Shown: positions 11,384-60,900, counted from the stretch's first letter. The stretch: DNA of 64,000 bases from Novosphingobium sp. (GCA_031422595.1 JANPMA010000299.1:3003-67002); one strand, 5' to 3'. Numbers and translations: made by a program. Notes: a model not told the origin generated them from the letters alone.

Positions 11384-11406
11384 AGGGCTGGAGGTGAAGG
11401 GAACCG
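11384..11406. repeat. Partial copy of the tRNA-Gly 3' end region (candidate distal att site)
   Basis: agggctggag+gtgaagggaa+ccg matches 38761-38786 (agggctggag cgg gtgaagggaa tcg). That is two exact 10-mers in the same orientation with a 3-nt gap. Confidence 0.55.
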
Positions 11407-11504
11407 CGAAATAGGGCAAAATCGTCTAACTTAAGCCATTTATTGAAGAGCAAATTTTTGACATACCCCCAATTGTACCCCCACGCTCTGTTTCATGATC
11501 CTCT

Positions 11505-12072
11505 CAAGCCTTGCTATGGATCATCGCGGGCAGCTTCGCTTGAACCTCATCAAACACGACAAGCGCAGCGGTAAAATCGAACGGTTCCACGGCTAATGCC
11601 AATCCGTCGGGACGCGCCGCACCAGCTTTGAAATTCGCTGTGAGGCGATCAAGCAATGCAGCCTTGGATTTTGTGTCTTCGTTTCCTGCCAGGTGCTCGC
11701 CCTTGGTTTCCAGCGCGACGATCCGCTCGCGGCTGGCCTCGTCGCGGGTCGCGGCAAGAAGGAAGTCGGGATAGACGTTGCCTCGCCGCCAGCTGCGCAG
11801 GCCATAGCTGCCCCGTGAAGCGCCGTTGCGGTGCCACTGGCTTCCACGGTCAAGACCTTGGGCAGGGCAATCGCCGTTGTGCTGAAAGTGTCGCGCCGCC
11901 GGATCGTTTGCACGCCACCCGTCTCGCCCAGGCCTATGGCTGTGCCTGGAAATAGAGCGTCGCCGTCAGCGCGCAGGTGGTCCTCACGTAGTTCGCGGAC
12001 CCAACCGGCGACTATTGCCAACGCCTGATCGGTTACCGGCATGAAATAGGTCCGGAAGGTCTTGGCAAACTT
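11505..12072 (-). pseudogene. Remnant of a PD-(D/E)xK nuclease / restriction-helicase C-terminal region (frameshifted, no credible start)
   Basis: The minus-strand reading is split over two frames. The upstream frame gives ...FAKTFRTYFMPVTDQALAIVAGWVRELRED. After a shift near 11830 it reads SYGLRSWRRGNVYPDFLLAATRDEASRERIVALETKGEHLAGNEDTKSKAALLDRL...DEVQAKLPAMIHSKA* (Y.PDF ... E.KG nuclease motif). It lies in an 870-bp region with no intact coding sequence. Confidence 0.4.
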
Positions 12073-12235
12073 GGTGGCGACGGTTTACCCGGCGCGAGGG
12101 CATGACCGTGCCCGCCGGATCAAGGGCTATGCAAGGGCTCAACATAAGCATAGCCTGACCGGCGGGAGCGAGGACGCGACGCGGAACCGGAGGTTGAAGC
12201 ACAGTTCATCAAGCGCGCGTACCGGGAGAAATCCG

Positions 12236-13591
12236 ATGGCCGTTTCAGATCATGTCAATTTCGCTGACTTCATGGCGGGGGTCAAACGCCGCAACCCGCA
12301 TCAGGATGAATTCGTTCAGGCCGTGCAGGAAGTTGCCGAAGACATTTTCGACTTCATCGCGGACAAGGAAGACTATCACCGCCAGCAGATCCTGCGCCGC
12401 ATGACCGAACCAGACCGGGTCGTATCGTTCCGCGTGTGCTGGGAAGACGATTCCGGCAATGTCCGCGTGCAGCGCGGTTGGCGGGTGCAGAACAACAATG
12501 CGATCGGCCCCTACAAGGGCGGGATCCGGTTCCATCCCAGCGTCAACGAGAGCGTCCTCAAATTTCTCGCCTTCGAACAAACCTTCAAGAACGCGCTGAC
12601 CGGCCTGCCGATGGGCGGCGGCAAGGGCGGTTCGAATTTCAATCCCAAGGGCAAGAGCGTGCGGGAGATCATGCGCTTCTGCCAAAGCTTCATGACCGAG
12701 CTCTATCGCCATATCGGCGCGGACATCGACGTACCTGCAGGCGATATCGGCGTCGGCGGGCGCGAGATCGGCTTCATGTTCGGTCAGTACAAACGCATCA
12801 CCGGCGAGTTTACCGGGGTACTCACCGGCAAGGGACTTGAATGGGGCGGCTCGCTGATCCGCACCGAAGCGACCGGGTACGGCGCGGTCTATTTCCTCGC
12901 CTCCATGCTCGCCACCAAGGGACAGGATCTGACCGGCAAGACGGCGGTGATTTCGGGCTCGGGCAATGTCGCGACGCATGCTGCCGAGAAAATCGTCCAG
13001 CTTGGCGGCAAGGTGCTGACCCTATCGGACTCGGGCGGCTATATCCATGATCCGGACGGAATTGGTCAGGCGAAGATCGACTGGGTCAAGGCGCACAAAA
13101 CGCATCGGCGCGGCCGGATCGAAGACTATTGCAGCGAGTTCAAGGGGGCCAGTTTCGTCGCAGGAAAGACCCCGTGGCACGTCCCGTGCGATGTCGCGCT
13201 GCCTTGCGCCACGCAAAACGAGCTGCTCGGCGAAGATGCCAAAGCGCTGGTCGCAAATGGCTGCATGGCAGTCGCCGAAGGGGCAAACATGCCAACCGAT
13301 CTTGCCGGGGTGCACGTGTTCAAGGCGGCCAAACTGCTGTTCGCGCCGGGCAAGGCCGCCAATGCCGGCGGGGTTGCCGTATCTGGGCTGGAAATGAGCC
13401 AGAATTCAGGGCGCCGGGCGTGGAAGGAGGACGAACTCCAGCAAATGCTCAAGGACATCATGGCTGGCATCCACACCAGCTGCCAGAACTACGGCGATCT
13501 GGGCGGCGGTCATATTGACTATGTCAGGGGCGCAAACATCGCCGGGTTCAAGAAAGTAGCAGATGCGATGCTGGCGTTCGGGGTTGTCTGA
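12236..13591 (+). CDS. gdhA: NADP-specific glutamate dehydrogenase
   Basis: Starts MAVSDHVNFADFMAGVKRRNPHQDEF. Contains KGGIRFHPSVN and GLPMGGGKGGSNFNPKG, and is 451 aa. The N-terminal extension of the 509-aa ORF is rejected. Confidence 0.95.
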   Translation: MAVSDHVNFADFMAGVKRRNPHQDEFVQAVQEVAEDIFDFIADKEDYHRQQILRRMTEPDRVVSFRVCWEDDSGNVRVQRGWRVQNNNAIGPYKGGIRFHPSVNESVLKFLAFEQTFKNALTGLPMGGGKGGSNFNPKGKSVREIMRFCQSFMTELYRHIGADIDVPAGDIGVGGREIGFMFGQYKRITGEFTGVLTGKGLEWGGSLIRTEATGYGAVYFLASMLATKGQDLTGKTAVISGSGNVATHAAEKIVQLGGKVLTLSDSGGYIHDPDGIGQAKIDWVKAHKTHRRGRIEDYCSEFKGASFVAGKTPWHVPCDVALPCATQNELLGEDAKALVANGCMAVAEGANMPTDLAGVHVFKAAKLLFAPGKAANAGGVAVSGLEMSQNSGRRAWKEDELQQMLKDIMAGIHTSCQNYGDLGGGHIDYVRGANIAGFKKVADAMLAFGVV

Positions 13592-13595
13592 ACCA

Positions 13596-14129
13596 ATGAC
13601 CCAAGGGCCACCCAAATTGTCAGTTCAGGCGGTCCACCTGGTCCGCACCGCGACGCAGACCAACCTTACGCTCAGCCAGATGGCCGACCAGAAAGCGAGC
13701 ATCCTGATGGGTGCGACCTTCGTGGTATTTACAATTGCGGTAGGTCAGGCGCGTACCGGCGCGGTGCCCTTGACGCTACTCGTCCTGGCGGGATTCGCCT
13801 TTCTTTCGGCAATGTGCGCGGTGGCGGCGATTCTGCCTTCCGTCTCCACCAAATCCAACCGCGACACGCAGCCCAACTTGTTGTTCTTTGGCACTTTCAC
13901 CCAGTTCAGCGAAGACGAATTTGCCGACCGCGTGCTCGCCGAACTCGGCGACGATGAACGTATCTACCGCGTGATGCTGCGCGATATCCATCAGAACGGC
14001 ATGGTGCTGCAGAACAAGAAGTATCGGCTGCTGCGGGCGGCATACCTGCTGTTCCTCGCCGGGCTGGTGGGCTCGTTCGCCATCTTTCTGTTCGAGAGCC
14101 GCGCCCTGTTCGGCGCAATCCGCTTCTGA
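13596..14129 (+). CDS. Small membrane protein, DUF5706 / PycTM-like (Pycsar-effector-type TM domain) without a sensor domain
   Basis: 177 aa. Contains QMADQKASILMG, two central TMs, PNLLFFGTF and a terminal TM after QNKKYRLLRAAY. The pattern matches my recollection of the family. Confidence 0.5.
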   Translation: MTQGPPKLSVQAVHLVRTATQTNLTLSQMADQKASILMGATFVVFTIAVGQARTGAVPLTLLVLAGFAFLSAMCAVAAILPSVSTKSNRDTQPNLLFFGTFTQFSEDEFADRVLAELGDDERIYRVMLRDIHQNGMVLQNKKYRLLRAAYLLFLAGLVGSFAIFLFESRALFGAIRF

Positions 14130-14130
14130 A

Positions 14131-15051
14131 CTAGCGAACGCCCAGTGCCGCCGCTTGCTCGCGCAGCTCGTTCGCCTTTCCAGGATTTGCGGCCACTGCC
14201 GACATCAGCGCCTTGCGGGCCAAGTCGGGCTGGCCGAGCGTCATACGGCTGCGGATGAGCATGACCCAGCCGTCCACATTGGTCGGATCGGTCTTGAGCC
14301 TGGCTTCGAGCCGGGCGACCATGCCTTCGGCCATTGTGCGTTGTTCAGACGGACGCAGCGCTGACGCGCGGTTGATGTCTTCGGCGCTCGGCCCGGCCAG
14401 GGCGGGCGCGGGCACCGGAAGCTGAGCGGCAGGTTGCTGGACCGCCGCGAGCTGTTTGGCTACGGCGATATGGTTGATCTTGGCCGCCTGCACAATTGTG
14501 CGGCGCAGGTCTGCTTCCCAGGCAGCACCCGGCGGCGTGTCGGCGAGCAACGCCAGCCAGCTGTCGATCGCGCCTTGGTGATCGCCGCTGAGGTCTTGTT
14601 TCACCGCCAGAAAATAGCGCGCGCGCGGGTCTTTGGGATCGAGCGCCACCGCGCGTTCGAAGTCGGTGGCGGCAGCGGCGGGCATCGGATCGCGCGCGCT
14701 GGCCATGACCCGCGCCTCGCCGCGCCCCGACCAGAACGAGGCTTGCTGCGGGGCCAGCTTCACTGCCGCGTCAAAGGCGGCCACGGCCTCATCGAAGCGG
14801 CCTGATTCGAAATAGGCCCCGGCAAGGGCCGACCAGGCCCTGCCGTCCTGAGGATTGTCGCGGGCTCGTGCCTCCAGCGCTGCCAGCGGATCGCCAGTTT
14901 CACCGGTCGACGCAACGGCTTGGCTGGACTCGACGCCGGGAACGCCGGAATGACGCCTGAGCGAAATGCCGATGGAGAAGCCGGCCAAAAGGATTGCCAC
15001 CAGCAAGATCCAGGTGCTGACGCGCCAACGGCCGGTCTGTCCTTCTGGCAT
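14131..15051 (-). CDS. TPR protein, cytochrome c maturation factor CcmI/CycH-like
   Basis: N-terminal TM, then TPR-like repeats (AWSALAGAYFESGRFDEAVAAFDAAVKL). The C-terminal part MAEGMVARLEARLKTDPTNVDGWVMLIRSRMTLGQPDLA resembles the CycH C-terminus. Confidence 0.6.
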   Translation of the reverse strand: MPEGQTGRWRVSTWILLVAILLAGFSIGISLRRHSGVPGVESSQAVASTGETGDPLAALEARARDNPQDGRAWSALAGAYFESGRFDEAVAAFDAAVKLAPQQASFWSGRGEARVMASARDPMPAAAATDFERAVALDPKDPRARYFLAVKQDLSGDHQGAIDSWLALLADTPPGAAWEADLRRTIVQAAKINHIAVAKQLAAVQQPAAQLPVPAPALAGPSAEDINRASALRPSEQRTMAEGMVARLEARLKTDPTNVDGWVMLIRSRMTLGQPDLARKALMSAVAANPGKANELREQAAALGVR

Positions 15052-15192
15052 AGGTTCGCCCGCCCTCCCTCAATTGCAGTCGCTGGCTTGCCGTCATCGG
15101 CGAAATCGTTCGGCTCCGGTGTGGATTAGCCGCTTCGATTATGCAACACTTGAGCCGCAGACGGGGACTGCGGGATTTCCCGGGGAGAGCCA

Positions 15193-17637
15193 GTGCCAGA
15201 TCGGGTGCGCATCGCCATCGTCGGGTCAGGGCCGGCAGGGCTGAGTGCAGCAGCGCGCGCGGCTCAGCTTGGGCTGACCCACGTGCTCCTCGAGAAGACC
15301 AAGCACCTCTCCGACACGATCTTCAAATACCAGAAGGGCAAGCATGTCATGGCGACGCCCGCCGCGCTGGTGCTGCGCTCGGACCTGCCGTTCGATGCCG
15401 GCCGGCGCGAGATGATACTGGGCGGCTGGGAAGAGCAGTCTGCAGCGCACGGGGTCAACGTGCAATACGATGCCGAAGTGCAGAGCATCGCTGGCGAAGC
15501 AGGCAATTTTGCCATCACGCTCAAGAGCGGCGCGGAAGTGCTGGCCGAGACTGTGATCCTGGCCATCGGCACCCAGGGCAATCCCAATCTCGTCCGCTGC
15601 CCGGTAGGGGAAGACTCGGTGGTCCAGTACCAGCTCGACGATCCCGCCGAATACAACGACGAGCACATTTTCGTGATCGGCGGCGGCGATGCCGGGATTG
15701 AAAATGCACTGGGGCTTGCCGCCGACCCGGCGCAGGGCAACGTGGTCAGCCTGGTAAATCGCTCGGCCGACTTCGCCACCGCGAAAGACGCCAACGTCAA
15801 GGCGCTGATGGCCGCCCGCGATGCCGGACGGATCACGCTCTACGTCGAGACCACGACCGCGCGGATCGATCAGGGCGAAGTTGCACTCGATACCCGCGAC
15901 GGTGAGGTTATCGTGCGCTGCGACCGGGTGATCGCGCGGATGGGTTCGGCCCCGCCACGCGCTTTTGTCGAAGCTTGCGGGATTGCATTTACCGGACCCG
16001 ACCGGCTGGCGCTGCCAGCGCTTTCGCCCTCGTTCGAGACCTCGGTGCCCGGGATTCATGTGATCGGCGCGCTGGCCGGCTATCCGCTGATCAAGCATTG
16101 CATGAACCAGGGCTACGATGTGGTCGAGTTCATCAACGGCAACCGCGACCTGAAGCCCGCCGACGAGCCGATCCTTGCCGCGAAATTCGCTGCGCTTCCC
16201 GGTCAGCGCTCGGTCGATGAGTGGCTGAACCTGTTCGGCAGTCAGATCGAAGTGTTCCGCGAGGTCTCACCGCTCCAGCTGCGCGAGTTGATGCTCGATA
16301 GCACCGCGCGCTGTTTCGCTCCGGGCGAGGCGCTGTTCGTGCGCAATGATACCGGATCGTCGCTCTTCGCCTTGGCCGAGGGTTCAGTGCTGGTCGAGGT
16401 CGACAAAGACGATCCCGCCAAGGTCGTCCCGATCGCCCAAGGTGAAATCGTTGGCGAGGTCGGGCTGATCTCCGGGCGCCGGCGCGGGGCGACTGTGCGC
16501 GCCGACGGGCCAGTAGTCGCGGTCGAGCTGTCACGGACCGCAGCGCTCAAGCTGATCGCCACCGTGCCGGCGGCCGGGCGAGCCATTATGCGCGTGTCGA
16601 TCGAGCGCCAGCTTCTCCAGTTGTTCGGCTCGGGCCTTACGCGCGAGGATGTCGCAGAAGTGGTCGAACTGGCCGAAGTGCAAACCATCAAGGCTGGCGA
16701 GGTTGTCCTCACCGAAGGCGAAACCGGGACCGACATCTACGTCATCCGGCGCGGCTCGATGATCGTTGAAAAGAGCATCGGCGGCAAACAAGTGTTCCTC
16801 AATTACCTGCCCGCCGGGAGTTACGTCGGTGAAATGGCGCTGCTTGACGGTACCCCGCGGGTTGCAACGGTTAAGGCAGCGGTCCGGTCCGAGGTGATCC
16901 GCCTGCCCGGTGAGGCCTTTGCTCGGCTACTGACGCGCAAACCCGAATTGCGCCGCAAGGCGCTGGCCGACATGGCGACACGGCGCGACATCAATGCCTT
17001 TATCGAAGGCCGCAAGGACCAGTTTTCCGGCTCGGTCGATATGTACTCCGAAACCGCCCAGTTCCTGGTCGACAATGGTCTGGGCGAAGCGACCGATGTG
17101 CTGCTGATCGACGAAACCCTGTGCATCGGCTGCGACAATTGCGAAAAGGCCTGCGCCGACAGCCATGATGGACTGACCCGGCTCGACCGCGAAGCCGGGC
17201 GGACATACGCCCATCTCCACGTGCCGACCTCGTGCCGTCACTGTGAACACCCGCACTGCATGGCCGACTGTCCGCCCAACGCGATCAAGCGCGGCCCCGA
17301 TGGTGAGGTGGTGATCGATGACACCTGCATCGGTTGCGGCAATTGCCAGCGCAACTGCCCTTACGGTGTAATCCGGATGGACAGCGTCCCGCCGCCCAAG
17401 CCGCCGCTGCTCAGTTGGTTGCTGTTCGGGGCCGGTCCGGGGCCGGGCGAGCCGAGCTATGCGTGGCGCAAGAAGAACGCGCAGGGCACCGAGCAGCCCA
17501 AGAAGGCGATCAAGTGCGACATGTGCTCGGGGATTGAAGGTGGCCCGGCCTGCGTGCGCGCCTGCCCGACCGGCGCGGCGATCCGCGTCGCGCCCGAGGC
17601 CTTCCTTTCGGTCGCCCGGTTGGCGAAGGACGATTGA
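15193..17637 (+). CDS. Fusion oxidoreductase: TrxR-like NAD(P)H flavoprotein + 2 cyclic-nucleotide-binding domains + DmsB/NrfC-type four-cluster [4Fe-4S] module
   Basis: Dinucleotide motifs IVGSGPAG and VIGGGDAG are present, but I saw no CxxC redox disulfide in the flavoprotein part. The cNMP phosphate-binding cassettes are GEVGLISGRRRGATVRA and GEMALLDGTPRVATVKA. The Cys motifs are CIGCDNCEKAC, CRHCEHPHCMADCP, CIGCGNCQRNCP and CDMCSG..ACVRACP. Confidence 0.85.
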   Translation: MPDRVRIAIVGSGPAGLSAAARAAQLGLTHVLLEKTKHLSDTIFKYQKGKHVMATPAALVLRSDLPFDAGRREMILGGWEEQSAAHGVNVQYDAEVQSIAGEAGNFAITLKSGAEVLAETVILAIGTQGNPNLVRCPVGEDSVVQYQLDDPAEYNDEHIFVIGGGDAGIENALGLAADPAQGNVVSLVNRSADFATAKDANVKALMAARDAGRITLYVETTTARIDQGEVALDTRDGEVIVRCDRVIARMGSAPPRAFVEACGIAFTGPDRLALPALSPSFETSVPGIHVIGALAGYPLIKHCMNQGYDVVEFINGNRDLKPADEPILAAKFAALPGQRSVDEWLNLFGSQIEVFREVSPLQLRELMLDSTARCFAPGEALFVRNDTGSSLFALAEGSVLVEVDKDDPAKVVPIAQGEIVGEVGLISGRRRGATVRADGPVVAVELSRTAALKLIATVPAAGRAIMRVSIERQLLQLFGSGLTREDVAEVVELAEVQTIKAGEVVLTEGETGTDIYVIRRGSMIVEKSIGGKQVFLNYLPAGSYVGEMALLDGTPRVATVKAAVRSEVIRLPGEAFARLLTRKPELRRKALADMATRRDINAFIEGRKDQFSGSVDMYSETAQFLVDNGLGEATDVLLIDETLCIGCDNCEKACADSHDGLTRLDREAGRTYAHLHVPTSCRHCEHPHCMADCPPNAIKRGPDGEVVIDDTCIGCGNCQRNCPYGVIRMDSVPPPKPPLLSWLLFGAGPGPGEPSYAWRKKNAQGTEQPKKAIKCDMCSGIEGGPACVRACPTGAAIRVAPEAFLSVARLAKDD

Positions 17638-18513
17638 ATGGCCAGCGCCCCGCGCCCGTCCCGACAAACTGCGCGCCAGCTTACGGCCGATCACGAGGGC
17701 TTCCTGCGTCACCGCAATTTCCGTTGGCTCAAGCACGCGGGCGCACTGTGCGTTGTCGCCATCCTTGCCTACACGCTGATCGATGTGTCGCCCCGCCCGA
17801 ACGGCGGGACCTGGCTGGGGTACACGCTCGGCACCGTCGGGCTCGTGCTGATCGTCTGGCTCTCGCTGCTGGGCGTGCGCAAACGGACAATGACGCGCGG
17901 TGCCTGGTCGCTCAAGGCCTGGACCTCGGCCCACGTCTATCTTGGTCTCGCGCTGATCGTGATTGCCACGCTGCATACCGGCTTTGAATTCGGCTGGAAC
18001 GTCCACACCCTGGGCTATGCGCTGATGCTGTTGGTGATCGCATCGGGCCTGTTCGGGGTCGTGGTCTATTCCGTGCTGCCCGCGGCGCTCAGCAATAATC
18101 GCGAGCAGATGACCCAGCCGCAGATGGTCGAAGCACTCAGCGCGGTCGACCGCCAGCTACAAAGCGCCGCGCAGCCGCTCGATCCGCACTGGGCCGGGCA
18201 GGTCCTCGCCGCGCTTGGGGAGGGAGCTTTTGCCGGCGGCCTGTGGAGCCGGCTTGCCGGAGGCAAGCACGGCAGTGCGACCCAGCAGGCGATCGCCGCG
18301 TTCGACCTTGCCAGCACAGAAGAAGCCGCCGATCCGGCACTGGTCCGGGTCGAAGCGCTGCTCCAGCGCCGTGCCGCGCAGCTCGCCCGGATGCGGCGGC
18401 ACATGCGCCTCAAAGCGCTGCTTGAGGTTTGGCTCTACGTCCATGTCCCTGCAACCTTCGCTCTGATCGCCGCCTTAACCGCGCATGTGATCAGCGTGTT
18501 CTACTATTGGTAG
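17638..18513 (+). CDS. Polytopic inner-membrane protein, possible b-type cytochrome / electron-transfer subunit
   Basis: The ATG directly follows the upstream stop (TGAATG). There are about 5 TM helices. His residues inside helices (SAHVYLGL..ATLHTGFEFGWNVH; YVHVPATF..LTAHVISV) make haem-b ligation plausible but unproven. Confidence 0.55.
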   Translation: MASAPRPSRQTARQLTADHEGFLRHRNFRWLKHAGALCVVAILAYTLIDVSPRPNGGTWLGYTLGTVGLVLIVWLSLLGVRKRTMTRGAWSLKAWTSAHVYLGLALIVIATLHTGFEFGWNVHTLGYALMLLVIASGLFGVVVYSVLPAALSNNREQMTQPQMVEALSAVDRQLQSAAQPLDPHWAGQVLAALGEGAFAGGLWSRLAGGKHGSATQQAIAAFDLASTEEAADPALVRVEALLQRRAAQLARMRRHMRLKALLEVWLYVHVPATFALIAALTAHVISVFYYW

Positions 18514-18528
18514 GGGCGGGGCAGGGGC

Positions 18529-20226: not shown

Positions 20227-20242
20227 CAGAGGGGCTGTGCCG

Positions 20243-21100: not shown

Positions 21101-21110
21101 TCTGCGATCC

Positions 21111-30380: not shown

Positions 30381-30491
30381 GTTGCCCTCCAACCGGTCGC
30401 CAGTCTGGCATGCCGGGCCGGTCGGAGCAAGCATGTCGTCGCGGCTTTGCCCCGTTGCCACCCTGCCCGGTGCAGCCCATAGTCACTTGCG

Positions 30492-32348
30492 ATGGGCACA
30501 GGTTTGCGAATGATGATACGCCGCCTGCCGGGCGGGCGCTGGCTAGCGCTGGCAGCCGTATTTGCACTGCTGGCATTCGCCGATTACGGCAGGATCGATG
30601 CGACCCGGATCATCGACCAGCGCGGTGGAGATCTGCTGCTGGCACTTAACGCGCAGCGCAGGCCGCAGTCCGACCAGGTCGTGATCGTCGATATCGATCA
30701 GAAATCGCTCGAAGACATGAATGACGATGCCGGTTCCTGGCCCTGGCCGCGCTCGGTTCATGGCGAATTGATCGAGCACATTGCAGCGCAAAAACCGCAG
30801 GCCATCGTGTTCGATATATTGTTCAACGAACCTGACGTGTTCCGGCCCGAACACGATGCCGCGTTCGCCGCTGCGGTGGCGCAGCATCCCAACGTCTGGC
30901 TGGCGATGACGCTCAATTCAAACGGTACTGGCGCGGTGGTTAGCGATCTGCCGCCGGCGGTCGGGGCTCGGCCGATTGGAAATCCGAGACCCGGTACCCG
31001 GTTACCGATCATGCTGCCGCTGGTGGTTGCGCAATATCCCGAAGCGATGCGCGGCGGGCTGATCAATTTTACCCCTGACAGCGATGGAACCGCGCGGCAC
31101 CATCAGCTCCAAACCGATCGCGACGGCTGGCGCTTTCCCTCGCTGGCTGCACGCGTGACCGCTGATGCTGGACGCTCGCTGCCCGATACCAGCCAGGTCA
31201 TGCTCAACTGGCGCAGCGGGTGGCGGCACTTGTCCTACTCAAACGTCTACCTCGACAGTCTGCGGCGCCAATCGCAGCGACCAATGGACGAGTTCAAAGG
31301 CAAGATCGTGGTGATCGGCACCGCCGCACCAGGCCTGACCGATTTTCGCGTGGCCCCGCTCGGAAGCACTTACCCGGGGGTCGAGATCCTCGCCACTGCG
31401 CTTGACAACCTAGCCCGAGGCGACTGGCTGCGCGAGGTACGGCGGCCAGGCATGCTGCCCCTGGCCCTTGGGTTGATCGGCTTGTTGGCGCTGGGCTTTA
31501 CCCGCAACGTCAGCCCGCAACGCCTGTTGTTGGCGATGATCGCGATAACACTTGCTGCCATCGCAACGACCTGGCTGATCCTTGTTAGTGGCACGTTCGT
31601 GCCAGTATTTGGCGCTTTGGCATTTGGCTGGGTCTATTACCTGGTCGCAAGCGGTCTTGCCTACCTCGACGAGCGCGCCCGACGGCTCCGGACCGCCAGC
31701 CTGTTTACCCGCTTCCTCGATGCGCGCGTGGTTGCCGAGTTGATCGACAAGGGTGAGATCGACTTCCGGCAGCAGGCCCAGTCCCGCGAGATTTCGGTGC
31801 TGTTCTCGGACATCCGAGGGTTCACCGCATTGTCCGAAGTGTCCGCGCCGGAAGCCGTAGTTGCGATGCTCAATGACTATTTCTCACGGCAGGTGGGGGT
31901 GATCTTCGCGCATGGCGGGACGCTCGACAAATTCATCGGCGATGCGATCATGGCGTTCTGGGGCGCGCCTGCTGCGCAAGAAGATCACGCCGCCCGGGCA
32001 ATTGCCGCCGCGCTGGAAATGTCGGAGACGCTGGAAGGGCTGCGCGCACAGCTTGGCGGCATCGGTGCCGATCTCGAAATCGGCATCGGAATCCACTCGG
32101 GCGGCGCAGTTGTCGGGCTGATCGGATCGAAGGACCGGCTCGACTACACCGCAATCGGCGACACGGTAAACCTCGCCAGCCGGGTCGAGAGTACGACCAA
32201 GGGAATCGCCCGGGTACTGATTACCGAAGCGACCCGCGCTGCGGCCGGCGATATGTTCGAATACCGCGACTGCGGCGTACACCGGGTCAAGGGCCGCGCG
32301 GAAGGCGTTCGCCTATTTGAACCCTTCCGCAAAGCTGTTACGCTCTGA
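30492..32348 (+). CDS. CHASE2-sensor class III adenylate/guanylate cyclase (cyclase 1)
   Basis: An N-terminal TM is followed by a periplasmic CHASE2-like region (VVIVDIDQKSL...WPWPRS), about 3 further TMs and the catalytic domain (VLFSDIRGFT, DKFIGDAIMAFWGAP, DYTAIGDTVNLASRVES). The start could instead be the ATG at 30510. Confidence 0.85.
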   Translation: MGTGLRMMIRRLPGGRWLALAAVFALLAFADYGRIDATRIIDQRGGDLLLALNAQRRPQSDQVVIVDIDQKSLEDMNDDAGSWPWPRSVHGELIEHIAAQKPQAIVFDILFNEPDVFRPEHDAAFAAAVAQHPNVWLAMTLNSNGTGAVVSDLPPAVGARPIGNPRPGTRLPIMLPLVVAQYPEAMRGGLINFTPDSDGTARHHQLQTDRDGWRFPSLAARVTADAGRSLPDTSQVMLNWRSGWRHLSYSNVYLDSLRRQSQRPMDEFKGKIVVIGTAAPGLTDFRVAPLGSTYPGVEILATALDNLARGDWLREVRRPGMLPLALGLIGLLALGFTRNVSPQRLLLAMIAITLAAIATTWLILVSGTFVPVFGALAFGWVYYLVASGLAYLDERARRLRTASLFTRFLDARVVAELIDKGEIDFRQQAQSREISVLFSDIRGFTALSEVSAPEAVVAMLNDYFSRQVGVIFAHGGTLDKFIGDAIMAFWGAPAAQEDHAARAIAAALEMSETLEGLRAQLGGIGADLEIGIGIHSGGAVVGLIGSKDRLDYTAIGDTVNLASRVESTTKGIARVLITEATRAAAGDMFEYRDCGVHRVKGRAEGVRLFEPFRKAVTL

Positions 32349-32362
32349 CCACAGATCGGAGT

Positions 32363-32860
32363 GTGGAGGTTATGCGAAGCACACGCGTCATCCTCATCGC
32401 CGCGATTGCCCTGCTGTCCTGGACTGCGGCCCGGGCCAACGAACGCGGCGTGGTGATCCGTGCAGGCGATCTGTTTGCCGAACCCTTCGTCGATGCAGCC
32501 AAGATCGGTCCGCTCGCCAGCAATCAACCGGTGACGATTATCGAGCGCAAAGGGGGCTGGCTGGCGGTCGAAGTCGCTGGTCGGCGCGGTTGGGTGCGGA
32601 TGCTCAATGTCCGACTGGAAGCGCCGGCAAGACCGGCAGCCAACACAGCTGCGCTGCGCACCGGTAGCACAGGGCGCACGGTAGCGACCGGGGTAAAGGG
32701 TCTTGACGAAATCGACATTCGCAATGCCTCGGTCGATCGTGACCAGCTGGCGCAGCTTGGCCAGCTGGCTGTAAGCAGCGACGACGCGCGCCGTCGCGCC
32801 GTTCTGGACAACCTCAAGGAAGCCAAGGTCGACTATCTGAAACCGGGGAAGGTCAAGTGA
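32363..32860 (+). CDS. Periplasmic bacterial SH3-domain protein
   Basis: A signal peptide is followed by an SH3_3-like segment (VIRAGDLFAEP...VTIIERKGGWLAVEVAGRRGWVRMLNV). The stop overlaps the next start. Confidence 0.6.
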   Translation: MEVMRSTRVILIAAIALLSWTAARANERGVVIRAGDLFAEPFVDAAKIGPLASNQPVTIIERKGGWLAVEVAGRRGWVRMLNVRLEAPARPAANTAALRTGSTGRTVATGVKGLDEIDIRNASVDRDQLAQLGQLAVSSDDARRRAVLDNLKEAKVDYLKPGKVK

Positions 32861-33771
32861 TGCGCGCGCCCCACCCACTTTGGACCTTGGCGGTCATCTG
32901 CGCCTTGGTATCGACTTCGGCTTCGGCCCAGTTCGGTCCGCTGGGCAGCATTCTGGGCAAAGCTCGGTCGGCTCAGAAAATCGGCGAAGGACTGCGTAAC
33001 ATCAACGAACAGGAAGAGATCAAGATCGGCGGCGATCTGGCCGGAATGCTGCTTGGGGCCGCGCCGTTGCTCAAAGATCCGGCCAAGCAGCACTATCTCA
33101 ACACGCTCGGCGGATGGCTGGCGCAGCACAGCGAGCGGCCCGGATTGCCATGGAAGTTCGGCATCGTCGACAGCAATGATTTCAATGCATTTTCAACCCC
33201 GGGTGGCCACATCCTGATCACCCGCGGACTGTTCGATCGCATGCGCAACGAGAGCGAGCTGGCCGGAGTTCTGGCGCATGAGATCGCGCATGTCGTGCGC
33301 AAGCACCACCTCCAGGCGCTCCAGAAAGGTTTGCGCGAACAGTCGCTGAACGAAATGCGAAATTATTTCTCCGTTTCGACTGGAAGCGGGCTTGGCGACC
33401 GGTTCGCGAGCGCCATGCTTAGCGCCGGCAAGGATATGTATATCCGCGGCCTCGACCGGGACGATGAATACGAAGCCGACCGGATGGGCGTGGTGATCGC
33501 AGCCCGGTCGGGCTTTTCGCCTTACGGGCTGGTCGGCGTGCTCCAGACCCTGACCGCGACCACCGACGAGAAGGGCTATGGACTGCACAACCGGACCCAT
33601 CCGCTGCCGCTCGACCGGCTGGCGCATCTGGATGCGGCAATGGGTACGCGGTTTGACAGCATGCAAGGTCTGGTCGACGATGTGCCGAGCTTCGTAACCC
33701 TGCGCAATCCGCCGCCGATCGCGGCCCCGCCGGCACGAACGGCCAAGCCGAAGCGGCCCAAGCGTCCATGA
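32857..33771 (+). CDS. M48-family zinc metallopeptidase (periplasmic)
   Basis: Signal peptide, then FNAFSTPGGHILITRGL followed by HEIAHVVRKHH (HExxH). Both start and stop overlap the neighbouring genes. Confidence 0.8.
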   Translation: MMRAPHPLWTLAVICALVSTSASAQFGPLGSILGKARSAQKIGEGLRNINEQEEIKIGGDLAGMLLGAAPLLKDPAKQHYLNTLGGWLAQHSERPGLPWKFGIVDSNDFNAFSTPGGHILITRGLFDRMRNESELAGVLAHEIAHVVRKHHLQALQKGLREQSLNEMRNYFSVSTGSGLGDRFASAMLSAGKDMYIRGLDRDDEYEADRMGVVIAARSGFSPYGLVGVLQTLTATTDEKGYGLHNRTHPLPLDRLAHLDAAMGTRFDSMQGLVDDVPSFVTLRNPPPIAAPPARTAKPKRPKRP

Positions 33772-36008
33772 TAAAATGGGGCAGGAAACGCCTAGATAGC
33801 CGAGCGCCGGTGCTTGCCGGGGTTGTGCTGGTCGTTCTGGTGGCGGCGCTGCACTTTCTTGGCCTGACCACGCTCGATCGGATCGGGTTGCTGCTGTTCG
33901 ATAGCTATCAACGGGCCGCGCCGCGCGCCTATGAGGATGCCCCAGTAGCCGTTGTCGATATTGACGACGAAAGCATTCGCCGGCTCGGCCAATGGCCCTG
34001 GCCGCGCTCGGACATCGCCAAGCTGACCGATCGGTTGGGGCAAGCCGGGGCTTCGGTGGTGGCTTTCGACGTCGTGTTCTCAGAGCCTGACCGTACCTCT
34101 CCAGCGCGCATCGCCGATCAGGTGGCGCGCGGCGGTGCCGACAGCGCAACGCTCGCTGCGCTGCGCCGCTTGCCCGATCATGACGCCGAACTGGCCCGCA
34201 GCATCGCTGCCACTCCGGTCGTGCTGGGCTATTTTCTGGTCAACGACCGGGCCGGGCCGCAAGTCACCGCCAAGGCGGGATTTGCGATCGGCGGATCGCC
34301 TCCCGGCGAAGTGGTGCCAACGTTCCGCAGCGGAATCCAGTCGCTGCCGGTGCTGAGCGCGGACGCTGCGGGCAGCGGGTCGGTCAGCCTTGCCGCAGAC
34401 AGCGACGGTATCCTCAGGACTGTGCCGTTGCTCGCGCGACAGGGCGACCAGCTGTTGCCCTCGCTAGCGCTCGAAGCGCTGCGGGTAGCGCAGGGAGCGG
34501 GGTCGATCATGGTCAGGACCAGCGATGGCAGCGGCGAGATCGGCGGCACGCCCGGCCGGATCGTGGCGATCAAGGTCGGCCAGTTCGAAATTCCCACGTC
34601 TGATGCGGGCGGGCTGTGGCTGCATTATACCCCGCCGGTGCCGTCCCGGACCATCCCGGCGTGGCAGGTCCTCGACGGTACGCTTCCACCTGCGGAGCTT
34701 GAGACAGCGGTTGCAGGGAAGATCGTCTTTGTCGGAGCCGGGGCGATCGGTCTGCGCGATCTGATCTCGACCCCGCTGCGCGATCACGAGCTTGGCGTCA
34801 TGGCGCATGCCCAGGCCGCCGAGCAGGTAATCCTCGGGCAATTCCTGCAACGGCCCGACTGGGCGCTCGGCCTCGAACGGGTATTGATTCTGGTACTGGG
34901 ACTGGGGCTGGCGCTAATTTTGCCCCGGCTTGGCGCGGCTCGCGGGGCGCTGGTGGTCTTCGGGGCGGTCGGGCTGGTCGGTGCCGGAAGCTGGCTGGCC
35001 TTTACCCAGCGGGGCTTTCTCCTCGATCCGACTTATCCGGTGCTTGGCCTGGTGCTGGTCTACAGCGCCCAGACCGTGCTGGTGTTCTACCGCGAAGAGC
35101 GCCGCCGCGCCTATATCCACAGTGCGTTCGATCGTTTTCTCTCGCCCGAAATGGTCCGGCGGATCGCCGCCGATCCCGACAGGCTCGAATTGGGCGGCGA
35201 AGAGCGCGAGATGACGGTCTTGTTCTGTGATGTGCGCAACTTCTCGGGAATCTCCGAGCATTTAGCCCCCAAGCAGGTGATCGGCTTCCTGATCGCGCTG
35301 CTGACCCCGCTGTGCGACGTCCTGCTGGCGCGCAAGGCAACGATCGACAAGTTCATCGGCGATGCGATCGTGGCGTTCTGGAACGCCCCGCTCGACGACC
35401 CCGACCAGCACCGCAACGCCGCCCGCGCGGCCTTGGAAATGGTGCGCAAACTCGGTGCGCTCAATGCCGGGGAAGGACGCGATCCCGACGCGGCCTGGCC
35501 CGGGCCGGTGCGGATCGGGATCGGGCTCAATTGCGGACTATGCTGCGTGGGCAACATGGGCTCGGCGCAGCGCCTGTCCTATTCGCTGATCGGCGACACG
35601 GTCAATCTCAGCTCGCGGATCGAAGGCCTGACAAAATTTTACGGGGTATCGATCGCGATCGGCAAAGCGCTGCACGATAACCTGGCGGGATTTGCGACCC
35701 TTGAAATGGACCTGGTCCGCGTGGTCGGTCGCGACGCTCCCGAGCGGGTCTTCGTTTTGCTTGGCGAGGAAGAATTGGCTGATTCGCCCGAGTTCGCCGA
35801 TTTGCGCGAGCGGCACAATACAATGCTGGCGGCCTATCGGGCTTCCCAATGGGATGATGCGCGCGCCCAACTGTCCTTTCTCACTGACCACGCCGGGCAA
35901 TTCGGGCTCAGCCAGCTCTACTCGCTGTACGAAACAAGAATCGCGGCGCTGATCGCCGAACCTCCGCCGGCCGGTTGGGATGGAATCTACGAAGCGCGCG
36001 AAAAGTAG
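33768..36008 (+). CDS. CHASE2-sensor class III adenylate/guanylate cyclase (cyclase 2)
   Basis: TM plus CHASE2-like region (VAVVDIDDESIRRLGQWPWPRS), then TM helices and the catalytic domain (VLFCDVRNFS, DKFIGDAIVAFWNAP, SYSLIGDTVNLSSRIEG). It is a paralog of cyclase 1. Confidence 0.85.
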   Translation: MIKWGRKRLDSRAPVLAGVVLVVLVAALHFLGLTTLDRIGLLLFDSYQRAAPRAYEDAPVAVVDIDDESIRRLGQWPWPRSDIAKLTDRLGQAGASVVAFDVVFSEPDRTSPARIADQVARGGADSATLAALRRLPDHDAELARSIAATPVVLGYFLVNDRAGPQVTAKAGFAIGGSPPGEVVPTFRSGIQSLPVLSADAAGSGSVSLAADSDGILRTVPLLARQGDQLLPSLALEALRVAQGAGSIMVRTSDGSGEIGGTPGRIVAIKVGQFEIPTSDAGGLWLHYTPPVPSRTIPAWQVLDGTLPPAELETAVAGKIVFVGAGAIGLRDLISTPLRDHELGVMAHAQAAEQVILGQFLQRPDWALGLERVLILVLGLGLALILPRLGAARGALVVFGAVGLVGAGSWLAFTQRGFLLDPTYPVLGLVLVYSAQTVLVFYREERRRAYIHSAFDRFLSPEMVRRIAADPDRLELGGEEREMTVLFCDVRNFSGISEHLAPKQVIGFLIALLTPLCDVLLARKATIDKFIGDAIVAFWNAPLDDPDQHRNAARAALEMVRKLGALNAGEGRDPDAAWPGPVRIGIGLNCGLCCVGNMGSAQRLSYSLIGDTVNLSSRIEGLTKFYGVSIAIGKALHDNLAGFATLEMDLVRVVGRDAPERVFVLLGEEELADSPEFADLRERHNTMLAAYRASQWDDARAQLSFLTDHAGQFGLSQLYSLYETRIAALIAEPPPAGWDGIYEAREK

Positions 36009-36017
36009 GCCGCAGCC

Positions 36018-36920
36018 CTATGGCTTGACCGGCACTCCGGGCTGATCATTGGGTCCGGGCGCGCTGCCGCCGGTGTTTCTCTTGCCCTTGCCGTTGATTA
36101 CTCCGGGCAATACCCTCAGCGCCCCGCCCAACAACGCCTTACCCAGACCACCGCCGCCTTGATCAGGGAAAACCTGATCATGAAGACCCGATAGGCCACC
36201 CGGCGAAATGCGAAACGGACCTATCGGCGCGGCCCCTGCCCGGGGCACATAGACGGCCTGCATCGGTTCGGTCAGTTCAACAGTGACCCCGCCCGAAGTG
36301 ACCGAGGCAGACCCAATTTCAGCCCCGGGCTCAGTTCCCGGACCCGGTCCGCGCAAGACCACCAGAGTCGCGGTTTTCTTATCAGCATCTGCCTCGCGGA
36401 CTGCTCTATTTTCGTTTTTCGCAATATCGCGAGCGCCCTCCCCGACCACTCCTTCAAGGATCGTTCCGCGGATTCCGATTGTTGCAATTGGCGAGGATAT
36501 CGTTGCGCTATTGCCGCGATTGGGCTGCCCGGACATGAAGCGGAATGAACCGCGCAGCACAGACGCGCCCGAAGTCCGCCCGCGCGACGGATCATAGACG
36601 AAGCGGTCAATCCGCAGCACGGAGTTGGGGCCGATCGTGAAAGTCGATCGATCGAGTAGCAACACTTGCAGTCGGCCGTTCTTGCCGGTTTGAATCAGGT
36701 CAGCCAAGGCGATTCGTTGGCGGACTGAAATGGCTTTGGGCTTGGGCGATTGGGCGTTGCTCAGCTTGACTTGACCAACCACCGCAGCAGCAATGCCGAT
36801 TTGCGCCGCACTGCTTTGAGCATTGGCGATGCCCCAGCTCAACATTGTCGACGCAGCGCCAAGAGCAAGCAAGCCCCGCTTCAAATATCGGGTGCTGGTC
36901 TTTTTTTCCGGCATTTTCAT
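36018..36920 (-). CDS. Secreted FecR-domain protein
   Basis: ATG at 36920 is preceded by GAGGAA. It has a signal peptide (LLALGAASTMLSWGIANA) and a FecR-like beta-rich segment (IQTGKNGRLQVLLLDRSTFTIGPNSVLRIDRF). It converges on cyclase 2. Confidence 0.6.
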   Translation of the reverse strand: MKMPEKKTSTRYLKRGLLALGAASTMLSWGIANAQSSAAQIGIAAAVVGQVKLSNAQSPKPKAISVRQRIALADLIQTGKNGRLQVLLLDRSTFTIGPNSVLRIDRFVYDPSRGRTSGASVLRGSFRFMSGQPNRGNSATISSPIATIGIRGTILEGVVGEGARDIAKNENRAVREADADKKTATLVVLRGPGPGTEPGAEIGSASVTSGGVTVELTEPMQAVYVPRAGAAPIGPFRISPGGLSGLHDQVFPDQGGGGLGKALLGGALRVLPGVINGKGKRNTGGSAPGPNDQPGVPVKP

Positions 36921-37318
36921 TTTGTGGTTCCTCGCGGCGACGCTGCGGGTGCCGCACACACAGCTCGCGCGGCAGCCCATTCCGGCTTTTTGAAATCCTT
37001 GGACTTCAACCTGCCGAATTCGGCAGCCGCACCTTCCTGATCGTCGATCCGGCACAGGATGCTGGCATGGAGCAATTGGGCCGGTTTGTTAGCGGGATCG
37101 GTGAGCAGAACGCGTTCGAGAGTTGCCAGTGCATCGAGCAACGCACCCGATCCCGCTTGCGATCGGGCGAGCGCCAGTCCGTCTGCGGGCTTGGCGCTGG
37201 CCAACACCAATTGATCAAGCGCTTCCAAGGACTGTGCGACGGCGGGTTGCAGCAGGACCGTCGATACCGCCATGAATCCGAATACCGCTGAAACCACCCT
37301 GAATGCATTGCTTGTCAT
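36917..37318 (-). CDS. Small secreted helical (TPR-like) protein
   Basis: 133 aa with a signal peptide (FGFMAVSTVLLQPAVA) and an Ala/Leu-rich helical sequence. The stop overlaps the FecR-domain gene start (ATGA). Confidence 0.5.
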   Translation of the reverse strand: MTSNAFRVVSAVFGFMAVSTVLLQPAVAQSLEALDQLVLASAKPADGLALARSQAGSGALLDALATLERVLLTDPANKPAQLLHASILCRIDDQEGAAAEFGRLKSKDFKKPEWAAARAVCAAPAASPRGTTK

Positions 37319-37575
37319 GATCCCGGCATCCTCTCGCTGACCATATTGAGCACTGAATACATACCACTTGGAGAGTCATCCAGCAATCGAACTCACCACT
37401 GCGGACGAAAGACAAATTGGGCCGTGGCTGGCGCTCTGGTCATCGACGCCACAAAGCTGGGTCTGCTCCTGCTTCGCTTATTGACCGGTCGCAACACCGC
37501 GTATGTTGCCGTGTCCGGACAGGCAGGTTTTGGAGTGAAAGCCTGCTTAGCTGCCACTCAATCTACCCAGGTGCC

Positions 37576-38108
37576 CTAGTCAGCTGCGCCTTTTAGGGGC
37601 CAGTTAAGAATGTCAGCCCCCTTCCGCCGCTGATCGAGACAGTCCGACCACCATTGCGCCATTTCGACGCGCTCTTTCCAATGCGCGCCCCCGGGTGATA
37701 AGCCGCGCGCACTTTGTCAGTGTCGCCATGGGCAAGGGCGCGTTCTATTGCGTCCGGATTCCACTTGCCACTTTCGTTGAGCAGCGTCGACGCCATTGCA
37801 CAGAAGCCGTGGGCGGTCATTTCGTCGGTCGCATGGCCCAGGCGGCGCAGCCCCGCGTTGATCGTGTTGTTGCTCATGGGGCGTCGGCGGGTGCGGACGG
37901 AGGGGAAGACATAACCGCTCGGACCGGTCAGCGGCTGCACGCTCTTTAGGATCACAATGGCCTGGCGCGAGAGCGGAACGAGGTGTTCCTTGCGCATCTT
38001 GGTCTTGGTCGCCGGGATCGTCCACAGCGCCCCAGCCAGATCTATTTCGGACCATTCCGCGTGCCGCAGTTCACCGGGCCGGACGAACACAGGTAGGGCG
38101 AGCTGCAT
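37576..38108 (-). pseudogene. P4-type tyrosine integrase remnant: C-terminal catalytic half only, frameshifted near its 3' end
   Basis: Contains RPGELRHAEWSEIDL, HLVPLSRQA and HGFCAMASTLLNESGKWNPDAIERALAH..VRAAYH. The frame then breaks in the C5G3 run at about 37688-37695. The alternative frame continues ...HWKERVEMAQWWSDCLDQRRKG to a stop at 37576. About 200 N-terminal residues are absent. Confidence 0.75.
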
Positions 38109-38133
38109 CGTGAATTTGGTGATTGGTTGTCCA

Positions 38134-38427
38134 TCACCGCACTACTCGATGAATCGTGCGCCGATAACTATGCGCAACAGTGATCAGCACACCGTCCTCT
38201 GAGGTGATCAGGTAAGCACTTCGTAGTCTTTCGCATGCCTTGAAAATCGCGAGCCCATGATCACTACGAATGTCGGCCAAGGCGTTCTTGGTGAAAATCA
38301 GGCTGTCGATACCGCGATGGGAAGTGCGCCGTTCGCCGCAATGGAACAGCGCCATAACCACGGTCTCGTCAAGACCTCGCTGCTGGATTCTTTGATTGAA
38401 ATGCTTGGTGCGGATTGTGCCATTCAT
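38134..38427 (-). CDS. Small protein, DUF4258-like toxin fold suspected; no partner gene present
   Basis: 97 aa with a strong SD (AAGGAGG) 7 nt upstream. RTKHFNQRIQQRGLDETVVMALF resembles the H..QRM..RGI motif. It lies in a stretch of visibly lower G+C between the integrase remnant and the tRNA. Confidence 0.45.
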   Translation of the reverse strand: MNGTIRTKHFNQRIQQRGLDETVVMALFHCGERRTSHRGIDSLIFTKNALADIRSDHGLAIFKACERLRSAYLITSEDGVLITVAHSYRRTIHRVVR

Positions 38428-38760
38428 GGGGATGACCTCCTTGATGGCTCCCCATGGTAGTCACAAAAAACATTAGGTCAAAAGCACTCGATGCCACCTG
38501 AACAGAGCAGAAGAACCGTCTTCGGCGGAAACGGTCAGGTTGCCTGACCGCTGCGAGAGACCAGGTCGATCGTGGCAGCTGATACAGTTCATCAAGCCGT
38601 TGTTCCCCACCTTTGTAGCCCACTGTCGAGGACGATTTCCCGAACGATTTGAAAGCGTTGTTAGGTCACTGACTGAGCAATCGTGACCCGCTTCTGTGCC
38701 CCAAACGGGCGAATCCACTTGGCTTGTCGCAGATTCTTCTGGCTTTTCTGGGTGTTGGGA

Positions 38761-38786
38761 AGGGCTGGAGCGGGTGAAGGGAATCG
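38761..38786. repeat. tRNA-proximal copy of the direct repeat (candidate att site, includes the tRNA 3' end)
   Basis: agggctggag cgg gtgaagggaa tcg. Positions 38766 onward form the 3' acceptor and T-arm of tRNA-Gly. The repeat partner is at 11384-11406. Confidence 0.55.
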
Positions 38787-38839
38787 AACCCTCGTATTCA
38801 GCTTGGGAAGCTGCTGCTCTACCATTGAGCTACACCCGC
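38766..38839 (-). tRNA. tRNA-Gly (anticodon CCC)
   Basis: The minus strand reads GCGGGTGTAGCTCAATGGTAGAGCAGCAGCTTCCCAAGCTGAATACGAGGGTTCGATTCCCTTCACCCGCTCCA. It has a 7-bp acceptor stem, GCTC/GAGC D-stem, anticodon loop TTCCCAA, GGTTCGATTCC T-arm and an encoded CCA. Confidence 0.9.
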
Positions 38840-41055: not shown

Positions 41056-41498
41056 TTGCGGTCCAGCGGGATCACCGCGACAGTAAGGCGCGAAATGCAG
41101 ACCAGCTTGTCGGCCCCGTCCTCGATCCGGATTGTCCAGACCTGGGTGGTACGGCCCAGCGATTCGGGCCGGGCGGTGGCATAGACGAAGCCATCATAGG
41201 CCGGGCGGATGTGGTTGGCGTTGATTTCCATTCCCACCGCGACATGCTGTTCGCGATCGATGCAGAAACTGGCGGCGACCGAGCCGATGGTTTCGGCGAG
41301 CGCCACAGAGGCCCCGCCGTGGAGCCGCTTGAACGGCTGCTGGGTGCGGTGATCGACCGGCATCCGCGCGCGGATCCAGTCATCGCCGCAATCGACGAAT
41401 TCGATCCCGAGATGGCCGGGCAGGGCATTTTCGCCCAGCGCGGTCATCGGTTCCAGAGGCGGGCGCTGGCCGCCCCACCAGATTGATGCGTTGCTCAT
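41052..41498 (-). CDS. PaaI/hotdog-fold thioesterase
   Basis: 148 aa. Contains QPFKRLHGGASVALAETIGS, the PaaI-type HGG motif. Confidence 0.75.
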   Translation of the reverse strand: MSNASIWWGGQRPPLEPMTALGENALPGHLGIEFVDCGDDWIRARMPVDHRTQQPFKRLHGGASVALAETIGSVAASFCIDREQHVAVGMEINANHIRPAYDGFVYATARPESLGRTTQVWTIRIEDGADKLVCISRLTVAVIPLDRK

Positions 41499-60865: not shown

Positions 60866-60900
60866 CGCGATCTTAGCGCACAGCTGCCAACCTGCGCGGC

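Follow-up and report, generated by a model that had tools for sequence, protein, structure and literature searches.

A 25.3-kb gene block within a probable, decayed integrative island at tRNA-Gly(CCC) of Novosphingobium sp.

The integrated form of ICEclc lies at the 3' end of a tRNA-Gly gene and is bounded by 18-bp direct repeats (attL and attR); its attP carries the 18-bp 3' end, so that the tRNA is restored (PMC5812530). Genomic islands are more generally recognised by absence in relatives, altered G+C, a tRNA neighbour, mobility-gene remnants, genes that form a functionally coherent block, and direct repeats on the flanks (PMC1360685). In this study, we analysed a stretch of 64,000 nucleotides from Novosphingobium sp. 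(GCA_031422595.1 JANPMA010000299.1:3003-67002), hereafter called the window, whose positions are counted from its first letter. Positions 11384-38783 very likely form a genuine, now immobile integrative island of composite origin at the 3' end of tRNA-Gly(CCC), within which lies a conserved gene block, termed here the supercluster block. The region is absent in relatives (L015 and the pair L003/L014, with the caveat of a small scar in L015), has an altered composition (a modest effect), lies at a tRNA gene between repeats (an 18-nt core at 38766-38783 and a 15-nt core at 11389-11403) and contains mobility-gene remnants (an integrase and a second recombinase). As such, the island is of an ordinary, standard kind. 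An initial annotation, made from the sequence alone, had proposed an immobilised integrative island bounded by direct repeats at this tRNA gene, a proposal that the junction family, the element remnants and the empty sites described below support.

The likeness to ICEclc of Pseudomonas knackmussii B13, whose integrase IntB13 belongs to the P4 family, lies in the attachment (att) core, which in the window is likewise the 3' 18 nt of tRNA-Gly. In contrast, ICEclc is about 100 kb long and conjugatively self-transmissible, whereas the element family found here measures 7-10 kb. PHROGs and domain scans of three members of this family (L034, L035 and L038) revealed no type IV secretion system (T4SS), relaxase or capsid domain. 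In the window island, Pfam scans of the main open reading frames (ORFs) between 11.4 and 38.8 kb likewise detected no T4SS/mating-pair or relaxase domain, unlike what is expected of an integrative and conjugative element (ICE). Islets and satellite-like elements with P4-type integrases, as generally portrayed, resemble the family in their small size, in the position of the integrase (Arm-DNA-bind_3, Phage_int_M and catalytic domains) beside a tRNA gene, and in a variable slot, which here holds type III restriction-modification (R-M), MmeI-type R-M, AAA_13 or Fic genes, and DUF927 in L035. They differ in that no capsid-hijacking, Psu/Delta/Sid-like or primase hallmark turned up with PHROGs, no search having been aimed at these, and in that the present family is marked by a distal arm with paired TACCCCCA boxes and by a second tyrosine recombinase. 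Compared with classical "anchored" tRNA islands with degenerate integrases, the functional block of the window can be recognised as a secondary module replacing part of a small-element backbone, not as the element's own conserved cargo.

A single tRNA was called in the window by ARAGORN, namely tRNA-Gly(CCC) at 38766-38839 (minus strand), whose 3' 18 nt (38766-38783, read on the plus strand) constitute the proximal att core. The plus strand across the tRNA-Gly 3' end reads TGGAGCGGGTGAAGGGAA directly followed by TCGAACCC. The imperfect direct repeat proposed in the initial annotation was found at both positions on the plus strand: the pair AGGGCTGGAG and GTGAAGGGAA occurs exactly twice in the window, contiguously at 11384-11403 and with a CGG spacer at 38761-38783, and the pairing had no copy in 100 shuffles. 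The distal att core, TGGAGGTGAAGGGAA (11389-11403, plus strand), is the 18-nt tRNA-Gly 3' end minus 3 nt in the same orientation as the proximal copy, and both cores are preceded by AGGGC (11384-11388 at the distal one). When a 45-nt probe spanning the tRNA 3' end was aligned with gaps to both strands of the rest of the window, against a null of 100 Markov-generated sequences, it scored 16.5, versus a null mean of 12.5 (SD 1.1). The repeat is thus just moderately significant by statistics alone; it is the comparative evidence that makes it convincing.

This evidence concerns the sequence next to the distal core. The conserved element arm (P' arm; 11404-11486, plus strand) begins with CCGCGAAAT and contains two TACCCCCA boxes, at 11464-11471 and 11476-11483, which may be binding sites for the recombinase or an accessory protein. 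The window arm is 74-79% identical to the arms of seven other loci (L014, L028, L031, L034, L037, L038 and L041). In L014, a contig of a metagenome-assembled genome (MAG), a homolog of the gene on the left of the window island (the left gene) and a TIR-TPR gene are followed by TGGAGCGGGTAAGGGGAA joined to CCGCGAAAT, that is, by the full 18-nt 3' end of the tRNA-Gly of its own lineage fused to an arm of about 95 bp, which is 74-76% identical to window positions 11393-11483, both TACCCCCA boxes included. L014 shares the arm alone with the window, and its cargo is unrelated. A scan of a metagenome collection with the arm-only pattern GGAACCGCGAAATN{40,60}TACCCCCAA returned 19 loci, most of which exhibited a partial tRNA-Gly 3' end immediately before the arm. 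In an alignment of 18 retrieved arms, the second TACCCCCA box and the upstream tRNA-like core were conserved, though both lie outside the search pattern. Since the same arm follows tRNA-Gly 3' ends in L014 and in most arm-pattern loci, the repeat at the distal position marks a genuine att junction. It is therefore part of a family of att junctions associated with tRNA-Gly, and not of an unrelated dispersed family, the alternative that the initial annotation had considered.

The distal core varied in length among members. It was complete (18 nt) in L014, L025 and L039, 1 nt shorter in L029, L031-L033 and L037, 2 nt shorter in L034, and 3 nt shorter in the window and L041; a diverged junction of the same type, also 3 nt short, directly follows the left gene of the close relative L004 (left gene 83% identical). 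Because shortened cores recur at the distal junctions of other members, the 3-nt gap of the window is a recurrent variant, not simply private decay. The length polymorphism, which spans full, -1, -2 and -3 nt forms in independent family members, falls in the GAGCGGGTG stretch, and candidate causes are slippage in the G-run, imperfect attP cores and the position of the crossover. Some other arm loci had a core of the tRNA-Gly(TCC) type. The layout of the family junction, i.e., a partial tRNA-Gly 3' end, CCGCGAAAT, about 50 nt and ATACCCCCAAnnnTACCCCCA, is present in the window at 11389-11483. In two loci, the N-terminus of an integrase was observed just outside the distal junction (L039, 1531-1674; L041, 3455-3637), giving the order integrase arm, core, distal arm. 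This attP-like order, which would arise in excised circles as well as in tandem copies, suggests that other members may be active or present in tandem.

The family, defined here as L014 plus L024-L042, includes complete elements (L034, L035 and L038), which are only 7-10 kb long, with a P4-type integrase beside the tRNA gene and R-M or other defence-like genes. The complete element L034 (8.7 kb) comprises, in order, the arm, a type III Res gene, an N6/N4 methylase gene, a second tyrosine recombinase gene (374 aa; PF00589 and PF02899), a gene for an HTH_17 protein, a 310-aa ORF that overlaps the end of the integrase gene, the integrase gene and, at the integrase end, tRNA-Gly(CCC). L038 (7.2 kb) carries an MmeI-type enzyme and terminates at tRNA-Gly(TCC); L035 (about 10 kb) carries DUF927 and AAA_13 proteins; and the cargo of L025 is a type III R-M system plus Fic. 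The intact integrase architecture (Arm-DNA-bind_3, Phage_int_M and Phage_integrase) was found in L034, L035 and L038. The hosts appear to be Sphingomonadaceae-like. This family, which combines an 18-nt core, paired TACCCCCA boxes in a conserved arm, an integrase of the P4 type and defence genes that vary between members, has not been named before, and could serve for mining defence genes or as an integrase/att pair for Sphingomonadaceae. The window departs from it in size and cargo, since the island measures 27.4 kb, of which the supercluster block accounts for 25.3 kb, and no R-M gene was identifiable in it with Pfam.

Remnants of such an element were nonetheless recognisable on both sides of the block. 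The initial annotation had reported a truncated and frameshifted P4-type integrase beside the tRNA, and this was borne out: a PF00589 match (37593-38108) falls in a remnant at 37585-38135 (minus strand) that covers residues 227-402 of 409 and is 80% identical in amino acids to the L034 integrase (tblastn), with DNA identities of 74-78% to L034, L035 and L038. Alignment with three intact integrases exposed three lesions: the N-terminal 226 aa, with the arm-binding and central domains, are gone; the reading frame shifts after AAYH, near 37689; and the catalytic HGFR of the three intact homologs reads HGFC, an Arg-to-Cys change. The window copy therefore lacks the three-domain structure and the RHRY residues of an intact integrase and is a dead descendant; given these three lesions, excision is expected to be lost. 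In place of the integrase N-terminus and the proximal arm stand about 630 bp of unrelated DNA (38136-38765), without similarity to L034, L035 or L038, and for which the sole match was 60 nt of L036 (at 38600-38659). A pseudogene fragment of the second tyrosine recombinase lies at 11893-12081 (minus strand; 63 codons, residues 193-255 of the 374-aa L034 protein; tblastn 49% identity, E 1e-13, with a tblastx match to L028 as well), and the start of the 310-aa backbone ORF (residues 15-46) at 37596-37691 (minus strand; tblastn 66% identity, E 4e-8), its remainder being replaced by the block. The order arm, recombinase fragment, block, 310-aa ORF start, integrase and tRNA parallels that of L034, so that the DNA separating the remnants takes the place of about 2 kb of backbone, corresponding roughly to the recombinase N-terminus, the HTH gene and most of the 310-aa ORF. 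Whole-window tblastx comparisons with the metagenome loci were dominated by sum-statistic noise, and filtering on single high-scoring segment pairs was used instead.

Two smaller features of the end segments had also been reported. The toxin-like orphan gene beside the tRNA exists as an ORF of 97 aa (38134-38427, minus strand), but its only domain support is a match to DUF4258 that stays below threshold (E 0.011; 16.5 bits versus a cut-off of 25). The frameshifted nuclease remnant beside the distal repeat was not verified, the identifiable remnant there being the second recombinase fragment. The candidates for it, a 149-aa ORF and hand-translated fragments, had no Pfam match, and a possible likeness of the fragment to the C-terminus of ResIII was not confirmed, no similarity to the Res proteins of L034 or L025 being found with tblastn or tblastx. 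The 149-aa ORF (11593-12042, minus strand), which lies in the degenerate distal segment and overlaps the recombinase fragment in another frame, is probably not a real gene.

Empty and occupied sites were compared through the flanking genes. The left gene (8324-11362, plus strand) encodes a 1012-aa protein with NAD_binding_8 and a weak ADC-like match in Pfam; an exact-protein look-up matched this version and not a 1029-aa version with a TTG start. Its homologs and their synteny were examined in L002-L017, and place the window among Novosphingobium-like Sphingomonadaceae. In close relatives, the left-gene homolog is followed by tRNA-Gly(CCC), either directly or after one TIR-TPR gene, and the block is missing from this position in every homolog locus that extends far enough downstream. 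In L015, the closest relative by flank genes (84-90% identical in amino acids; left gene 84%), the left gene, 174 bp and tRNA-Gly(CCC) precede the same three right-flank genes as in the window, which are 88-91% identical (tblastn). These are a short-chain dehydrogenase (SDR) gene (38946-39983, minus strand), a second SDR gene (40333-41055) and a thioesterase gene (41052-41498), all with Pfam support. L003 and L014 form a clean empty/occupied pair, L003 exhibiting an intact tRNA after the same TIR-TPR gene. Relatives thus lack the island; a gene order shared by all of them, which the initial annotation had named as evidence against its proposal, was not observed.

L015 also contains a second partial tRNA-Gly 3' end (4969-5025), consisting of TGGAGCGGGTGA, a 33-nt insert and GGAATCGAACCCCCC, a T-arm-like fragment. 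It lies just after the stop codon of the left gene, where the window has its distal junction, and 153 nt separate it from the real tRNA. This copy looks like the scar of another event, and indicates that the tRNA has been hit repeatedly. The TIR-domain/TPR gene directly follows the left gene in most relatives (L014, 10925-12613; L003, 13055-14763; L002, L005-L007, L009-L011 and L013), with two copies in L007; it is followed by tRNA-Gly in L003 and L007, and by the att junction in L014, and is absent from the window, L004 and L015.

Since the window is a MAG contig, and one of the 100 random sequences equalled the alignment score of the 45-nt probe, the 20/23-nt match could in principle be a chance similarity without any island, or the product of a chimeric assembly. 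The probability of this is close to negligible: the arm that follows the match is conserved in about 20 independent loci, mostly behind tRNA-Gly ends, an integrase remnant adjoins the tRNA and relatives show empty sites. Moreover, contigs from three other samples reproduced the left junction (L001, L049 and L050, at 99.8, 98.2 and 98.9% identity, respectively), two of them (L049 and L050) also spanning the breakpoint at 12124, which effectively refutes a chimera at that junction.

The conserved block extends over 25.3 kb (12124-37458) inside the element backbone and was delimited by Pfam annotation and continuous DNA homology. It contains, in order, gdhA, a PycTM gene, a CcmH-like TPR gene, genes for a cyclic nucleotide monophosphate (cNMP)-binding flavoprotein/ferredoxin, multihaem cytochromes and an HbpS-like protein, then two CHASE2 cyclase genes and genes for SH3, M48 peptidase, FecR and small TPR proteins. 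DNA identity was 90.4 and 87.3% to L018 and L020, which belong to one metagenome contig, 85% to L019, and 74% to L021/L022, on a contig of 1.6 Mb. The edges are sharp, at 12122-12124 on the left and 37394-37458 on the right, about 140 nt past the small TPR gene. An imperfect palindrome, GGGCTATGC...GCATAGCC (12124-12155, plus strand), is located exactly at the left edge, upstream of gdhA, and is conserved in L018, L019 and L022; it is possibly an operator. The gene directly behind gdhA (13563-14129) codes for the protein with the PycTM (Pycsar effector) domain, a position kept in every block copy whose left end was examined (L018, L019, L022, L023, L049 and L050); the two CHASE2 cyclase genes lie further on in the same block. 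An exact-protein look-up of P0121, 100% identical to a window cyclase, returned no match, and literature searches yielded no description of the island or the supercluster.

Outside the window, the block was found in varied surroundings. On its left were type IV secretion genes (L018, L019 and L023) or lipid-metabolism genes (L022); on its right, GST/GreA (L020), ECH/cysDN (L021), SpoU/Mla/ValS (L044) or a terminase fragment (L045, L046 and L048; the L047 contig stops before that point). No tRNA was found in the block loci L018-L021, and the genes called in L018-L021 and L044-L048 included no integrase. The secretion genes are a VirB/Trb-type set directly upstream of gdhA (L018, 1-6868; L019, 1-6870; L023, 1-6632), comprising TrbC, VirB3, VirB4, TrbL, CagX and TrbI, with VirB8 called in L018 and L019 only; the set has the same orientation in L018 and L019 and is reversed in Novosphingobium sp. 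JCM 18896 (L023). In contrast to an ICE, T4SS genes thus adjoin the block solely in other genomes. The Terminase_6C fragment right of the block characterizes one lineage (L045, 14207-14980; L046, 14208-14642; L048, 6187-6585), and is followed in L045 by a DDE-transposase fragment and a PAS call; these fragments are debris of mobile elements unlike those that left traces in the window.

The cNMP-binding protein is widespread in Novosphingobium (73-95% identity), and the cluster core also occurs on Sphingobium replicons of about 1 Mb (70% identity). These were the only plasmids on which the cNMP protein was detected, none being small conjugative plasmids, which gives no direct support for plasmid carriage. 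One of them, pMSHV of Sphingobium herbicidovorans (L043, 794856-837366), is a 959-kb replicon typed as conjugative; its cluster core includes TPR, cNMP-binding, cytochrome and haem-binding proteins with extra genes interspersed, and no glutamate dehydrogenase or cyclase annotation appears within the 42.5 kb shown.

The composition of the window changes at the limits of the island. The mean G+C at third codon positions (GC3) was 0.743 inside (17 genes) and 0.810 outside (32 genes; Mann-Whitney p = 3.7e-5). Total G+C was 0.592 at 11384-12123, 0.638 in the block (12124-37458) and 0.575 at 37459-38765, versus 0.653-0.657 in the flanks, so that the lower G+C noted in the initial annotation is real but modest, and clearest in the end segments. 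The tetranucleotide distance to the outside profile was 0.197 inside versus 0.152 outside, a comparison favoured by the use of outside sequence to build the reference; it climbed near 10-11 kb and dropped near 38-39 kb, and the windowed analysis thus placed shifts of GC3 and tetranucleotide usage at about 11 and 38.8 kb, as the proposed limits predicted. The GC3 of the block was about 0.74-0.76 in the window, in L018/L020 and in L044, regardless of that of the flanks.

Together, the varied neighbourhoods and the composition constant across hosts, and not the integrase of the window, support horizontal mobility of the block, which behaves as a relocating module in Novosphingobium. In one MAG, block proteins were 80-96% identical to those of the window (L019) and flank proteins 56-79% (L007), a contrast that is suggestive only. 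It is conceivable, though rather unlikely, that the block is a cassette in its own right, whose ends are sharp and conserved (at the gdhA operator palindrome on the left and about 140 nt past the small TPR gene on the right), and that it relocates between chromosomal sites and the backbones of mobile elements in Novosphingobium without an internal recombinase, with decayed tRNA-Gly defence islets as landing pads and neighbouring T4SS modules as vehicles.

The same observations bear on the view that the block is ancestral at this site and was inherited vertically, L015 having deleted it, with the repeats and integrase scraps as scars of unrelated small elements. The two TGGAGCGGGTGA copies of L015, 153 nt apart and the first at the position of the window distal junction, fit a large deletion, and the wide occurrence of the cNMP-binding protein in the genus fits vertical inheritance. 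We consider this view very unlikely, since the block sits between the distal arm and the integrase with colinear backbone fragments on either side, in relatives it has five different surroundings on the right and three kinds on the left, its GC3 differs from the flanks in both the window and L044, and the block is missing from every left-gene homolog locus with enough downstream sequence.

How the block came to lie in the element is less clear-cut. Based on the integration mechanism suggested by the family, a small element would have entered the site through recombination, by its P4-type integrase, between the attP core and the 18 nt at the 3' end of the tRNA gene, regenerating the tRNA at 38766-38839 and displacing the old 3' end to 11389-11403, beside the element arm. 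As the colinear remnants show, the 25.3-kb block lies inside the backbone, with the second recombinase gene on one side and the 310-aa ORF on the other, and takes the place of about 2 kb. The element has decayed: the integrase has lost its N-terminal 226 residues to the unrelated 630 bp and has acquired the frameshift and a Cys in place of the Arg of the HxxR motif, the second recombinase is reduced to its 63-codon fragment, and no excisionase-like gene is left. The block is a secondary module lodged in the backbone of a small element of the defence type. We tentatively favour its acquisition in situ, after integration of the element, while recognising that this order of events falls somewhat short of an even chance; entry of the block before integration is slightly less probable.

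A related possibility, doubtful but deserving attention, is the model of the initial annotation taken literally, in which a dedicated island, about 27-30 kb long and carrying the supercluster as cargo, was put together elsewhere, integrated here as a unit by means of its own P4-type integrase and then decayed. The block does lie entirely between the two att copies; moreover, its edge at 37458 leaves the integrase gene, which ends at about 37585 (3' end), uncut, so that a composite with a working integrase could have existed, and the pick-up of cargo within the backbone is common among integrative elements. On the other hand, the readable element stretches of L014 and L024-L042 contain no block, and complete members are small and carry defence-type cargo. 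The closest block copies (L018/L020, L019/L045 and L044) are linked neither to the element nor to a tRNA, and the insertion cost the element its HTH/excisionase-like gene and left two of the backbone genes truncated. The initial annotation had suggested looking for the same cargo beside an intact integrase, and no block copy adjoining one was found. Its reading of the supercluster as the cargo of this island, delivered by the integrase and therefore transferable, was consequently not demonstrated, no other family member being found with the block.

Several points weigh against a composite tRNA-Gly island with a mobile block. The direct repeat by itself reaches only about p = 0.01 under the Markov null. 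L015 is not a pristine empty site, and may have undergone a loss in place of a gain in the window lineage. Independent assemblies confirm the left side only, and not the right junction, from 37458 to the tRNA. Block and element are connected at this one locus only, as neither a block-bearing family member nor a copy with an intact integrase by the block was found. The compositional shift is modest, and in the L021/L022 genome the block has the same GC3 as its flanks. Finally, the contrast of identities between L019 and L007 depends on the binning of contigs into one MAG and compares different protein families.

With the island read as composite, the supercluster of this genome represents an accessory, horizontally mobile module of 25 kb, not core DNA; its function is therefore likely to be niche-specific. 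Since its ends are known, the module lends itself to comparison as a unit between hosts.

Elsewhere in the window, GC3 was again lower (0.72-0.76) in a run of genes at 59255-62217, and the tetranucleotide deviation exhibited a bump at about 46-51 kb, around a gene encoding a 937-aa protein (46625-49438). Both regions (59.3-62.2 kb and 46-51 kb) may be further foreign segments.

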